NCBI RefSeq assembly: GCF_000027125.1
Contig: NC_017626.1
Strand: one strand, 5' to 3'
From: Escherichia coli 042
GTDB lineage: Bacteria; Pseudomonadota; Gammaproteobacteria; Enterobacterales; Enterobacteriaceae
Length of the DNA: 64,000 nt
How positions within the stretch are numbered: position 1 is the stretch's first letter; every line of letters starts with the position of its first letter. Below, piece after piece: positions 22,557 to 26,864 of this stretch. The notes under the pieces were generated by a model. The model did not search any database. It was not told where the DNA came from and saw nothing but the letters and a program-made list of their open reading frames with translations. The translations under genes and the position numbers were made by a program.

Positions 22557-23841
22557 AAGATTACGAAAGCCCGCTCCCAGCAAGGACTGACGCCAGATAG
22601 TTTCTGTCCATGGCTGCTTTTCGCATCTTACGTCTTAACCCTGCCTTGAATACCTTATCATTCGTCAAAATATTAATAGCGATGTGCCGTATCCCTGAAA
22701 ATAATTCTGCGGCGTTTCCTCTTCTTATTTTGCAGTCGTCTTCATTCATTACCACGTCCAGACGCCAGTGCAGCTTATTCTCCACGTGCCAGCGGTTTCG
22801 GATTGCTGTGGCGAACTTCTCTGCGGTTAAATCAGCACAACTGATATAATATCTGACCGTCATTTCTGGCTCTTTCTTTTGTTCTGCTATTATTGACCGA
22901 AAGGAGACTGCCACGCATAATTTCTTCAGACCTTTCCATTCAAACGTGAAATCAATAAGTTCATCAGGGACATCGCAAACAATGTGAAGACGGATTTCTT
23001 CTCTGCCGTGACTCTTTTCACTAATTGCGTAACTGTCATGCTCTGGATTATTTAATTCTTTCAGTGGGAATTTTTCCTCAAAGGCTTTATTAAGCCGCCC
23101 CTGATTTCCTTTTACAGCGAATAAATAATCACCGCCCTGTTTTTGTATCTTCTCTGCAATATCTTTCTGGCAACCCATCGCATCAGTTGTGATGATTTTT
23201 CCTTTAATATCCAGCATGTTAAGAAGTTCAGGGATAGCTGTAATCTCATTTGATTTCTCATCCGTCCTGATCTGTCCGATGACCAGACTGTGCATTGTTG
23301 AGAACGCACTAATGACATGAATCGCTCCCTTGCGGCGACTCTTGTCATAAGAATGCCGGAGTGTTTTTCCATCAATTGCGATGACGTCTTTATCATCTGA
23401 AGAATGGCAGTCACGCATCCAGTTAATAAAGCACTCGTGAAATTTTGCAGGACTGATACAGGATACAACTCTGGCAATAGTATCGTGAACAGGAATACCA
23501 TTATCAAAATCACCATATTGCTTCAAAAAATCGAGATGTGTTTCCCCAAAATCCTCTATATCTTCCCAGCCTTCTGCACCCGAAATAACGGCACAAATAG
23601 TCAACAGTAGAATATCCGATAATTTATGTTCCACTTTCCAGGCTTGTCTGTAATCGGGGATAATAGAAATATGTTCCATCAATTTTTTAAGTTCCATTTT
23701 GTTCTCCTTAATTATGTAAGGAGTATTTGATCATGTATAAGCAATAAAAAACAGCTTTAGGTAATGAGGAATATCTCAATTTGTAAACATAAAATGCGAA
23801 TTATTTAGTACAAAAAGTGTACTTCTGATGATCTTTCCCTG
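22557..23841 (-). mobile_element. H-repeat (H-rpt) element, ISAs1-family, copy 1 (apparently intact)
   Basis: ~1.29 kb unit repeated at 24708..26772; carries a 378 aa transposase ORF; boundaries set where the two copies diverge. Confidence 0.8.
22561..23697 (-). CDS. ISAs1-family transposase (H-repeat-associated protein, YhhI/YdcC-like)
   Basis: 378 aa [35 protein letters not shown]..., recognised as the E. coli H-rpt protein. Confidence 0.88.
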
Positions 23842-24045
23842 GGAGGTGATACTGACCGTCTGCCCGAATTCGTCATAGAGGAAAAACGTCGCGCCGCCCT
23901 CCGGGTCAATTTCACACACCGGAAGCCGGTCTTCACTGAAGCGGATAATGGTGGTATGCCCCAGCGAATCAGTCATCTCCAGCTCATGGCAGAAATCATT
24001 CCATACAAAGTGGTAGTCGTAGTACCCGCCGTCGCCCAACAGCAA
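23842..24045 (-). pseudogene. Rhs-like YD-repeat remnant (tentative)
   Basis: Short ORF with YDY...YDEFGQ motifs resembling Rhs core repeats, directly adjacent to the H-rpt; no start or full domain. Confidence 0.3.
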
Positions 24046-24062
24046 TCAATCATCGAATCAAA

Positions 24063-24524
24063 TTAACTTGACAAGGTTTTTATTTTTTCGTGTTCGAAAA
24101 ATAAATGTAGCATAGCGTCATTAATATTACCGCCTATAATACAAAAATAGTTATCAAAACCACCATAAAGAGCACCATCATCTGAAATAAAATATGTCAT
24201 ATGCTCAGAAAAACCAACACCAACAGGACATAAACGCTTATTGACCAATGGTTCATAGACTTCAGTTATCCATTTAGAGTCTATCCAACCAGCAGCTTTT
24301 ATTGGATCAAAATCGGATTTATCATACTCATTAGGATCTGAATAAGATTCATGCCGTACTATCAACCCTCCAAACTCTGATAAAAAATCACAAATAATTT
24401 CATTAACAAAATATTTCTTAATGGATAAACACTTTATATATTTATCTATGTTTTCTTTTCTGCCATAGTGCCATCCATTTTGCAACAGGACACTCATCAC
24501 TTGTTTATTCGTTATATGATTCAT
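24063..24524 (-). CDS. hypothetical protein, candidate immunity protein for the adjacent deaminase-like toxin fragment
   Basis: 153 aa ORF starting 3 bp after the toxin-fragment stop, the usual toxin-immunity arrangement. Confidence 0.5.
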   Translation of the reverse strand: MNHITNKQVMSVLLQNGWHYGRKENIDKYIKCLSIKKYFVNEIICDFLSEFGGLIVRHESYSDPNEYDKSDFDPIKAAGWIDSKWITEVYEPLVNKRLCPVGVGFSEHMTYFISDDGALYGGFDNYFCIIGGNINDAMLHLFFEHEKIKTLSS

Positions 24525-24526
24525 AA

Positions 24527-24707
24527 TTACCCCGTTAATACATCAATTCCTAAATATTTGAAAATTTCCTGACAGTTTCTACAGTTCGGAAAAGCACTTC
24601 CATCACCAGTATGAACTGTAGCCATTTCCAAATCATGCAACGATGAATTATCTTTGAGAGCTTTATTCACCGCATCTATTTCAGCACAATTATTAACAGC
24701 CCAAGGC
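24527..24707 (-). pseudogene. C-terminal fragment of a cytidine-deaminase-fold toxin domain, N-terminus removed by H-rpt insertion
   Basis: Peptide ...AVNNCAEIDAV...(31 aa)...FPNCRNCQEIF carries the C/H-A-E ... P-C-x-x-C zinc-ligand spacing of deaminases; its 5' end is the H-rpt copy 2 terminus. Confidence 0.5.
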
Positions 24708-24711
24708 AAGA

Positions 24712-25176
24712 TTACGAAAGCCCGCACCCCGCAAGGACTGCCGCCAGGTAGTTTCTGTCCATGGCTGCTTTTCGCATCTTACGTCTTAACCCTGCCTTGA
24801 ATACCTTATCATTCGTTAAAATATTAATAGCGATGTGCCGTATCCCTGAAAATAATTCTGCGGCGTTTCCTCTTCTTATTTTGCAGTCGTCTTCATTCAT
24901 TACCACGTCCAGACGCCAGTGCAGCTTATTCTCCACGTGCCAGTGGTTTCGGATTGCTGTGGCGAACTTCTCTGCGGTTAAATCAGCAGAACTGATATAA
25001 TATCTGACCGTCATTTCTGGCTCTTTCTTTTGTTCTGCTATTATTGACCGAAAGGAGACTGCCACGCATAATTTCTTCAGACCTTTCCATTCAAACGTGA
25101 AATCAATAAGTTCATCAGGGACATCGCAAACAATGTGAAGACGGATTTCTTCTCTGCCGTGACTCTTTTCACTCAT
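24712..25176 (-). pseudogene. ISAs1-family transposase, C-terminal fragment
   Basis: 154 aa ORF matching residues ~225-378 of the copy 1 transposase. Confidence 0.8.
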
Positions 25177-25218
25177 TGCGTAACTGTTATGCTCTGGATT
25201 ATTGGTAATGACTCCAAC

Positions 25219-25722
25219 TTATTGATAGTGTTTTATGTTCAGATAATGCCCGATGACTTTGTCATGCAGCTCCACCGATTTTGAGAACGACAGCGACTTC
25301 CGTCCCAGCCGTGCCAGGTGCTGCCTCAGATTCAGGTTATGCCGCTCAATTCGCTGCGTATATCGCTTGCTGATTACGTGCAGCTTTCCCTTCAGGCGGG
25401 ATTCATACAGCGGCCAGCCATCCGTCATCCATATCACCACGTCAAAGGGTGACAGCAGGCTCATAAGACGCCCCAGCGTCGCCATAGTGCGTTCACCGAA
25501 TACGTGCGCAACAACCGTCTTCCGGAGCCTGTCATACGCGTAAAACAGCCAGCGCTGGCGCGATTTAGCCCCGACGTATCCCCACTGTTCGTCCATTTCC
25601 GCGCAGACGATGACGTCACTGCCCGGCTGTATGCGCGAGGTTACCGACTGCGGCCTGAGTTTTTTAAATGGCGGAAAATCGTGTTGAGGCCAACGCCCAT
25701 AATGCGGGCGGTTGCCCGGCAT
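25219..25722 (-). CDS. insB: IS1 transposase InsB
   Basis: 167 aa [29 protein letters not shown]..., canonical IS1 InsB. Confidence 0.9.
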
Positions 25723-25916
25723 CCAACGCCATTCATGGCCATATCAATGATTTTCTGGTGCGTACCGGGTTGAGAAGCGGTGTAAGTGAACTGCAGTTGC
25801 CATGTTTTACGGCAGTGAGAGCAGAGATAGCGCTGATGTCCGGCGGTGCTTTTGCCGTTACGCACCACCCCGTCAGTAGCTGAACAGGAGGGACAGCTGA
25901 TAGAAACAGAAGCCAC
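25641..25916 (-). CDS. insA: IS1 protein InsA
   Basis: 91 aa [42 protein letters not shown]..., canonical IS1 InsA, overlapping insB as expected for the InsAB' frameshift arrangement. Confidence 0.9.
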
Positions 25917-25971
25917 TGGAGCACCTCAAAAACACCATCATACACTAAATCAGTAAGTTGGCAGCATCACC

Positions 25972-26625
25972 TGGATTATTTAATTCTTTCAGTGGGAATT
26001 TTTCCTCGAAGGCTTTATTTAGCCGCCCCTGGTTTCTTTTTACAGCGAATAAATAATCACCGCCCTGTTTTTGTATCTTCTCTGCAATATCTTTCTGGCA
26101 ACCCATCGTATCAGTTGTGATGATTTTTCCTTTAATATCCAGCATGTTAAGAAGTTATGGGATAGCTGTAATCTCATTAGATTTCTCATCCGTCTTGATC
26201 TGTCCGATGACCAGACTGTGCATTGTTGAGAACGCACTAATGACATGAATCGCTCCCCTGCGGCGACTCTTGTCATAATAGTGCCGGAGCGTTTTTCCAT
26301 CAATTGCGATGACGTCTTTATCATCTGAAGTATGGCAATCTCGCATCCAGTTAATAAAGCACTCGTGAAATTTTGCAGGACTGATACAGGATACAACTCT
26401 GGCAATGGTATCGTGGACAGGCATACCATTTTCAAAATCACCATATTGCTTCAAAAAATCGATATGTGTTTCACCAAAATCCTCTATATCTTCCCAACCT
26501 TCTGCACCCGAAATAACGGCACAAATAGTCAACAGTAGAATATCCGATAATTTATGTTCCACTTTCCAGGCTTGTCTGTAATCGGGGGTAATAGAAATAT
26601 GTTCCATCAATTTTTTAAGTTCCAT
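25972..26625 (-). pseudogene. ISAs1-family transposase, N-terminal portion with premature stop
   Basis: ORF 26155..26625 matches the copy 1 N-terminus but ends at ...EITAIP; copy 1 has cctgaa where copy 2 has ccataa (TAA stop); remaining sequence is in shifted overlapping ORFs. Confidence 0.75.
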
Positions 26626-26864
26626 TTTTTTCTCCTTAATTATGTAAGGAGTATTTGATCATGTATAAGCAATAAAAAACAGCTTCAGGTAATGAGGAAT
26701 ATCTCAATTTTTAAACATAAAATGCGAATTATTTAGTACAAAAAAGCAGCGTTACGTGATCTTTCCCTGACAGCAAACTGAATACAGAAACATATTGGTT
26801 GGAAATGCTATTTGACAGCAGATCCCGGTGGGCCTGCCACCATCTCTTCACAAGCTTATGCTTA

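Follow-up and report, generated by a model that had tools for sequence, protein, structure and literature searches.

Two direct H-rpt copies between nfrB and cusS of Escherichia coli 042 bracket a decayed Rhs toxin/immunity module that is very probably lost by homologous recombination

In the stretch of Escherichia coli 042 analysed here (64,000 nucleotides of contig NC_017626.1; the window), nfrB and cusS are separated by an island of 11.6 kb, where the same gap in K-12 measures 150 bp. The locus is very probably a decayed Rhs orphan array that was cut by two H-rpt elements and whose remaining module is excised by homologous recombination between the two copies. Two ISEc1 elements of different sublineages, in direct orientation, would have cut up an array of orphan toxin/immunity genes, now decayed: copy 2 appears to replace the 5' part of a deaminase gene, copy 1 (with an intact transposase ORF) appears to truncate the Rhs core fragment of the next orphan, and 860 bp would thus have been left between them, including an intact SUKH-3 immunity gene. 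As direct repeats that share tracts of identity of up to 184 bp, the copies would undergo homologous recombination, by which the module is excised and one chimeric H-rpt remains.

Copy 1 is a complete H-rpt/ISEc1 element of 1,291 bp at 22551..23841 on the minus strand, with CAGGG...CCCTG ends (CAGGGAAAGAT / ATCTTTCCCTG); its start had been placed at 22557 in the first-pass annotation. Elements of the ISAs1 family are about 1.2-1.5 kb long and carry terminal inverted repeats starting CAGGG, and copy 1 agrees with this in size and in ends. Its transposase ORF (22561..23697, minus strand; 378 aa, intact) matches the family model NF033564 with 406 bits (cut-off 70 bits) as well as PF13808 and PF01609, as expected for the DDE transposase of this family. 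Nucleotide identity to H-rptB of K-12 is 96.6% for copy 1 and 95.8% for copy 2. The H-rpt (H-repeat)/ISEc1 of E. coli Rhs elements belongs to the ISAs1 family, and in K-12 H-rptB (yhhI) lies downstream of rhsB. Copy 1 and H-rptB share the length of 1,291 bp, the CAGGGAAAGAT termini, a 378-aa transposase and the orientation, and each comes after an immunity gene and the fragment of an Rhs core; unlike in K-12, two copies in tandem orientation here surround a relic module, no full-length rhs gene lies upstream, and copy 2 carries a different end patch (type B, below), a nonsense codon and an IS1.

Copy 2 extends over 24702..26769 (2,068 bp). It had been described as a unit of about 1.3 kb at 24708..26772; its orientation was correctly given, and the 768-bp IS1 that interrupts it was overlooked. 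The part holding the 3' end of the transposase gene (24702..25203, minus strand, 502 bp) ends in a degenerate terminal repeat (CAAGGCAAGAT). IS1 follows at 25204..25971 (minus strand), with canonical terminal repeats, an InsB match in Pfam (261 bits) and, on its two sides (25195-25203 and 25972-25980), the duplicated 9-bp target TGGATTATT; in all these respects it is a typical IS1 with nothing unusual, and the window holds only this one. The insertion is specific to the genome of the window among those compared, being present in none of 147 related E. coli loci. The part holding the 5' end of the transposase gene (25972..26769, minus strand) is interrupted at codon 157 by a premature stop (26155-26157), and the copy 2 transposase is annotated with an 'internal stop' in relatives too. 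Copy 2 is a dead element, by its nonsense codon and, in this window, by IS1 as well. It is adjoined by an H-rpt-associated segment of 156 bp (26770..26925, minus strand), which ends in a second terminal repeat of H-rpt type; the 113-bp core of this segment is rich in hairpins and also adjoins H-rpt 5' ends at other loci.

With IS1 removed, the two copies align with 1,245 matching positions, 51 mismatches and a single gap (96.0% identity); BLAST put the identity at 97.8% for the left part (502 bp) and at 95.6% for the right part (801 bp). Such identity over a 1.3-kb repeat is far beyond chance. The same orientation of the copies around the module, as first described, is borne out, and 'near-identical' overstates their likeness. 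Uninterrupted tracts of identity measure 184, 126, 90, 71 and 68 bp. A difference of about 13 bp just inside the right ends, likewise first noticed by eye, is real: copy 1 has a 13-bp patch termed type A (gtgtacttctgat, 23817..23829; the same in H-rptB and ydcC of K-12), copy 2 a 13-bp patch termed type B (agcagcgttacgt, 26745..26757), 10 of the 13 positions differ, and gatctttccctg comes next in both. Type B extends the terminal inverted repeat, the two ends of the element matching at 20/26 positions with type B vs 14/26 with type A; the type A inverted repeat is short (13 bp). Inspection of the alignment ruled out that either patch is an inversion or reverse complement of the other.

Ends of type B were found in 4,071 records and ends of type A in 3,323 (at least 95% identity), and both occur in an alignment of several H-rpt loci. 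Judged from these sequences, the 13-bp difference belongs to a standing dimorphism found throughout the H-rpt family and was not born at this locus. Type A and type B are each carried by thousands of E. coli genomes, which argues that the copies come from distinct H-rpt lineages and supports the initial suggestion of independent insertions or terminal variation. The junction sequences contain no target-site duplication at either copy, so insertion as such is not directly demonstrable; since both junctions truncate the array relative to its Salmonella counterpart, duplications may have been lost to later rearrangement. No empty site was found for either H-rpt, the flanks occurring in E. coli genomes only with H-rpts. 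The elements may have arrived by insertion followed by adjacent deletion, or by recombination with H-rpts elsewhere.

The module of 860 bp holds a toxin fragment, a SUKH-3 gene and an Rhs YD core fragment, and this content, as first read from the letters, was borne out by profile searches, translation and a Salmonella counterpart. The counterpart is an Rhs orphan array with the same order of toxin, SUKH-3 gene and core fragment at 81-83% identity, and it extends beyond both junctions. Next to copy 2, at 24527..24701 (minus strand), lie the last 58 codons (57 residues and the stop) of a deaminase toxin of YwqJ type. The motifs CAE and PNCRNC are present in this fragment, and copy 2, which begins at 24702, takes the place of the 5' part of the toxin gene. 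The toxin domain is incomplete: PF14431 is matched over profile positions 68-134 of 138 with a score (21.2 bits) that falls short of the cut-off (25.9), and the Salmonella version has 120 aa. A protein search for the full-length toxin gave fragments only, the context coming from one Salmonella contig. The SUKH-3 immunity gene (24063..24524, minus strand; 153 aa) is intact, matches PF14433 (E=5e-12, 46.6 bits) and is annotated in the same way in relatives; its place directly downstream of the deaminase fragment is that expected of a cognate immunity gene. A promoter scan found no sigma-70-like promoter upstream of it on the minus strand, so the gene probably relies on read-through from copy 2. 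The Rhs YD-repeat core fragment (23842..24045, minus strand; 68 codons) has its 3' side cut by copy 1 and scores 17.2 bits with TIGR01643 (cut-off 15.8 bits). It is homologous to the start of a 258-aa Salmonella orphan toxin composed of a core fragment and AHH, and this homologue carries RHS_repeat; the fragment belongs to the next module and not to the deaminase. No tblastn match to RhsB or RhsE of K-12 was obtained with it, which marks it as divergent. An Rfam search of the whole island gave no match.

The arrangement H-rpt-module-H-rpt was found between nfrB and cusS in 147 of 5,426 complete E. coli genomes, once in each, the distance from one flank to the other being 5,442 bp. It had been proposed that recombination between the copies would delete or amplify the module, and that strains lacking the segment at 23.8-24.7 kb should be sought. 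The comparison gave three strains with its exact loss: both flanks surround a single H-rpt in four records (strains CB6837, M7424 and M11957), which represent two independent events. Deletion is thus supported; amplification was not seen, each of the 148 genomes carrying the module having it in single copy. Each event left a chimeric solo H-rpt that resembles copy 1 in its left part and copy 2 in its right part. In CB6837 the change from one to the other lies in an identity tract of 81 bp (window-equivalent 23702..23782), in M7424 in one of 126 bp (window-equivalent 22667..22792). RecA-type exchange requires roughly 25-30 bp of uninterrupted identity; the tracts here measure 68-184 bp, and chimeric products are at hand in CB6837 and M7424/M11957. 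Deletion by homologous recombination between the copies is supported by these natural products, which stem from only two known events; we infer that the recombination was of RecA type.

The chimeric solo element alone gives no direction of events, and it might be held to be ancestral, the two-copy state having arisen by integration of a circle with the module and an H-rpt. With their different switch points, the two solo elements cannot each have given rise to one two-copy sequence, which the window shares with CFSAN061770 and M00057; moreover, M7424 is 100% identical to the two-copy strain M00057 across 9 kb of flank, and 147 two-copy genomes stand against three solo strains. This reversal of the deletion is therefore very improbable. 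For M7424/M11957 only, recombination may instead have taken place between two copies of a group II intron, one in each H-rpt, that had homed into an identical site. In this lineage the crossover interval of 126 bp contains an intron of 1,891 bp, at H-rpt position 204|205, with copy 1 sequence to its left and copy 2 sequence to its right, and another genome also has ltrA inside an H-rpt; against this, neither H-rpt of the sister strain M00057 has the intron, and the CB6837 event shows none. The intron route is a possible, if doubtful, variant for that one event.

As to the origin of the pair, a composite transposon, in which both H-rpts and the module moved in as a unit by means of the copy 1 transposase, would suit the intact ORF of copy 1 and the proper inverted H-rpt termini at the outer ends. 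It deserves hardly any credence and was rejected, as the pair has no flanking duplication (it is bordered by GGGACCGCAAT and ACAGCAAACTG) and each genome has the module at a single place, with the same flanks in all 147 genomes having the whole module; the inner and outer sequences of copy 2 are, furthermore, decayed, and comparison with Salmonella shows that a longer array was truncated at both inner junctions. Local duplication of one H-rpt followed by divergence in place, rather than separate acquisition, would account for the common orientation and location and for the want of target duplications at both copies. It is unlikely in view of the 4% divergence and the clustered replacement of 10/13 positions, both versions of which are common elsewhere in E. 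coli; the 156-bp segment with its inverted repeat adjoins copy 2 alone and accompanies H-rpts at other loci, and copy 1 and copy 2 have unrelated flanks. A further, improbable reading concerns the ends themselves: types A and B, together with the 113-bp segment and its extra terminus, could be signs of an undescribed modular organisation of the ends in the ISEc1 family. If it were true, the transposase might use the 113-bp segment as an outer end of another kind or as a MITE-like partner, and H-rpt pairs would be active shufflers or pruners of orphan immunity cassettes instead of passive homology.

The preferred reading, excision by recombination between two separately acquired H-rpts, has close parallels. 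Deletion between direct IS copies by homologous recombination is textbook knowledge and has been reported also for H-rpt in Salmonella rfb clusters. The present locus resembles such cases in its direct repeats, in the chimeric single copy that remains and in the loss of the bracketed segment; it differs in that the repeats are 96% identical, crossovers being confined for this reason to identity tracts of about 80-180 bp, and in that no reciprocal duplication was seen. A report on Aeromonas deals, at least in part, with IS-IS recombination (PMC3661141). Poole et al. 2011 (PMC3150448) describe orphan rhs-CT/rhsI modules downstream of rhs genes and note that, in the related systems of CDI (cdiA-CT), orphan toxin fragments are disrupted by IS elements. 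The serial order of core fragment, toxin C-terminus and immunity gene is shared with these modules, and the Salmonella counterpart is such an array; here, in contrast, the immunity gene alone is intact, and the toxin is cut within its catalytic domain and so cannot be reloaded onto an rhs gene.

The locus is an ordinary IS-bracketed, deletion-prone segment, in keeping with known biology, and no new mechanism is implied. The value of the result lies mostly in annotation, an odd-looking locus being explained by an Rhs orphan array that decayed through IS elements; the result further provides a clean natural case of direct-repeat deletion between IS copies of 96% identity, with the crossovers mapped. 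Because the orphan SUKH-3 gene lies within a deletion-prone bracket, immunity to the cognate deaminase could be lost in one step, and loss of the module would presumably cost the cell that immunity.

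An 860-bp module (deaminase-toxin 3′ fragment, SUKH-3 immunity gene, and Rhs YD core fragment) is bracketed by two direct, minus-strand copies of a 1.3-kb element, as found by repeat finding and BLAST in the window; by sequence, both copies are identified as H-rpt/ISEc1 elements. Copy 1 (22551..23841, 1,291 bp by base-by-base reading; start CAGGGAAAGAT, end ATCTTTCCCTG) is 96.6% identical to K-12 H-rptB (yhhI) and carries an intact minus-strand ORF (22561..23697; 378 aa) matching the ISAs1 transposase model NF033564 (406 bits), PF13808, and PF01609. Copy 2 (24702..26769; 2.07 kb including IS1) has a stop at codon 157. 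Start-to-start spacing of the copies shifts from 2,151 bp in the left part to 2,928 bp in the right part, indicating a 777-bp interruption of copy 2, which consists of a 768-bp IS1 (25204..25971; InsB ORF matching PF03400, 261 bits) and a 9-bp target duplication, TGGATTATT. With IS1 removed, the copies align with 1,245 matches, 51 mismatches, and 1 gap (96.0% identity). The first-pass annotation had described a same-orientation pair of near-identical, ~1.3-kb units: the orientation was confirmed, the size holds for copy 1 but not for copy 2, whose IS1 went unmentioned, and the near-identity has to be read as 96.0%. No target duplications were found in the bases flanking either copy. The transposase-distal terminus of copy 2 (24702..24712) is degenerate (CAAGGCAAGAT vs. 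CAGGGAAAGAT), and its exact junction with the toxin is ambiguous because five terminal bases (24702..24706), assignable to either partner, also occur in the Salmonella toxin gene.

Among 5,426 complete E. coli genomes, the module is present in 148, in single copy in each. In 147 genomes, a query of left flank, module, and right flank was covered in full and spanned 5,442 bp, equal to the module plus two uninterrupted H-rpts; the IS1 in copy 2 is absent from all 147 of these related genomes. Four records gave a full match to a synthetic deletion product used as query (left flank, a single H-rpt, right flank): two deposits of CB6837, plus the sister strains M7424 and M11957. The population comparison proposed earlier thus did recover strains without the module, and of the expectation that recombination would delete or amplify it, deletion is borne out and amplification is not (148 of 148 single-copy). 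Aligned with both copies, each solo element is chimeric, resembling copy 1 in its left part and copy 2 in its right part, the geometry predicted for direct-repeat deletion. The changeover maps to window-equivalent 23702..23782 for CB6837 and 22667..22792 for M7424, identity tracts of 81 and 126 bp, respectively (longest tract, 184 bp). A single two-copy sequence cannot descend from two distinct chimeras, which sets the direction as two copies to one. The flanks of M7424 are the same as those of the two-copy strain M00057 (100% identity; 4.2 kb left, 4.9 kb right), hence the M7424 deletion is recent and within one lineage. A separate, IS1-associated deletion was observed in MS20675 (L010), extending leftwards from window-equivalent 24562 and removing most of the module, copy 1, nfrAB, and neighbours; at its junction, the final 140 bp of the toxin fragment abut an IS1 beside a DLP12-like prophage region, into which the deletion reaches.

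While the bracketed arrangement, the natural products, and their geometry are directly observed, the exchange itself would be of RecA type between the copies, restricted by their 4% divergence to longer identity tracts. In the window, IS1 splits the homology into arms of 502 and 789 bp, either of which should still support deletion. For the M7424 event only, exchange between two copies of a group II intron is a possible substitute: its solo H-rpt contains a 1,891-bp intron (ltrA; 4205..6095 of the M7424 locus, L004) at H-rpt position 204|205 (window-equivalent 22754|22755), which falls within the M7424 crossover interval. In GN25, ltrA also lies within an H-rpt; the element may be a recurrent homing site.

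Within the module, all on the minus strand, are the toxin fragment (24701..24527; AVNNCAEIDAV...PNCRNCQEIFKYLGIDVLTG, then a stop), with CAE and PCxxC zinc motifs and a sub-threshold match to positions 68–134 of 138 of the YwqJ-deaminase profile; the intact SUKH-3 gene (24524..24063; E=5e-12); and the profile-matched YD-repeat core fragment (24045..23842). Module order is conserved, at 81–83% identity, in a Rhs orphan array of Salmonella enterica GCA_037560425.1 (L011, 5591..10182), comprising a 726-aa Rhs core ORF, a frameshift, a 120-aa deaminase C-terminus, SUKH-3, a 258-aa core-fragment+AHH toxin, and Imm11; SymE-toxin genes are interspersed. The Salmonella sequence runs on beyond both E. 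coli H-rpt junctions, and bears no relation to the E. coli DNA on the far side of each H-rpt; both junctions therefore truncate a longer array and are not simple insertions, consistent with the missing target duplications, and the Salmonella array reveals what was removed at each. A promoter scan of the minus strand gave no promoter-like site for the immunity gene, which is thus probably expressed by read-through from copy 2; IS1 may disturb this.

The 13-bp difference reported inside the right ends (23817..23829 in copy 1, type A; 26745..26757 in copy 2, type B) is real: the copies disagree at 10 of the 13 positions. Records matching at ≥95% identity numbered 4,071 for an 80-bp probe that ends in the copy-2 patch and 3,323 for the copy-1 probe; since the mismatch would lower identity to ~85–89%, below the threshold, both versions are common across E. 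coli, which supports the suggested terminal variation. Among several aligned loci, type A occurs in K-12 H-rptB, K-12 ydcC, and EC20 ydcC; type B in BL21 min-5 and copy 2, and at 100% in genomes with a single place for it (e.g., JJ2434). Termini match each other at 20 of 26 positions with type B vs. 14 of 26 with type A. The patch is thus a dimorphism at the level of the family, located within the subterminal inverted repeat, and, with 3.2% scattered divergence outside it, argues that the copies come from different H-rpt lineages.

Copy 2 is followed, immediately beyond its transposase-proximal end, by a 156-bp segment (26770..26925) that terminates in a second end of H-rpt type (reverse complement CAGGGAAAGAGCA). 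The 113-bp core of this segment (26814..26926) adjoins H-rpt 5′ ends at the ydcC (L008) and yafV/min-5 (L009) loci, matches ~2,400 E. coli genomes, and folds into four small hairpins (z −3.1 and −3.7), with no Rfam match; the segment could be a long-form end or MITE-like partner of H-rpt. A 103-aa minus-strand ORF (26865..27176), matching the C-terminal quarter of 3-oxoacyl-ACP synthase model NF004798 (E=1.6e-8), is the remnant of a gene truncated by the 113-bp segment.

Between nfrB and cusS, 150 bp apart in K-12, the window holds an 11.6-kb island (19901..31564), a graveyard of polymorphic-toxin parts. It also contains a beta-ketoacyl-synthase-like fragment and two paralogous beta-propeller genes in tandem (28607..29333 and 29759..30485; 346 aa each, ~91% DNA identity; WD40/YVTN/BNR-like repeat proteins per relatives' annotation), adjoined by a Tox-PAAR-like gene (28311..28625) and near a 336-aa beta-propeller gene (27269..28279) and a Tox-GHH2 nuclease fragment (30897..31196); the paralogues may belong, as immunity or accessory genes, to a further decayed toxin locus. 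Elsewhere, a 470-bp tandem direct repeat (45740..46209 and 46244..46711; 97.9% identity) between ybdK-like and entD-like genes, one copy encoding a Hok-type peptide, looks like a duplicated hok/sok-type locus.

Everything at the locus belongs to known kinds, and the finding is ordinary: H-rpt/ISEc1 likewise lies downstream of Rhs material at rhsB in K-12, the module is an orphan rhs-CT/immunity module (PMC3150448), and IS1 and deletion between direct IS copies are both familiar. Its main worth is as a well-documented natural example of deletion with mapped crossovers, in which loss of the module would cost immunity to the cognate deaminase.
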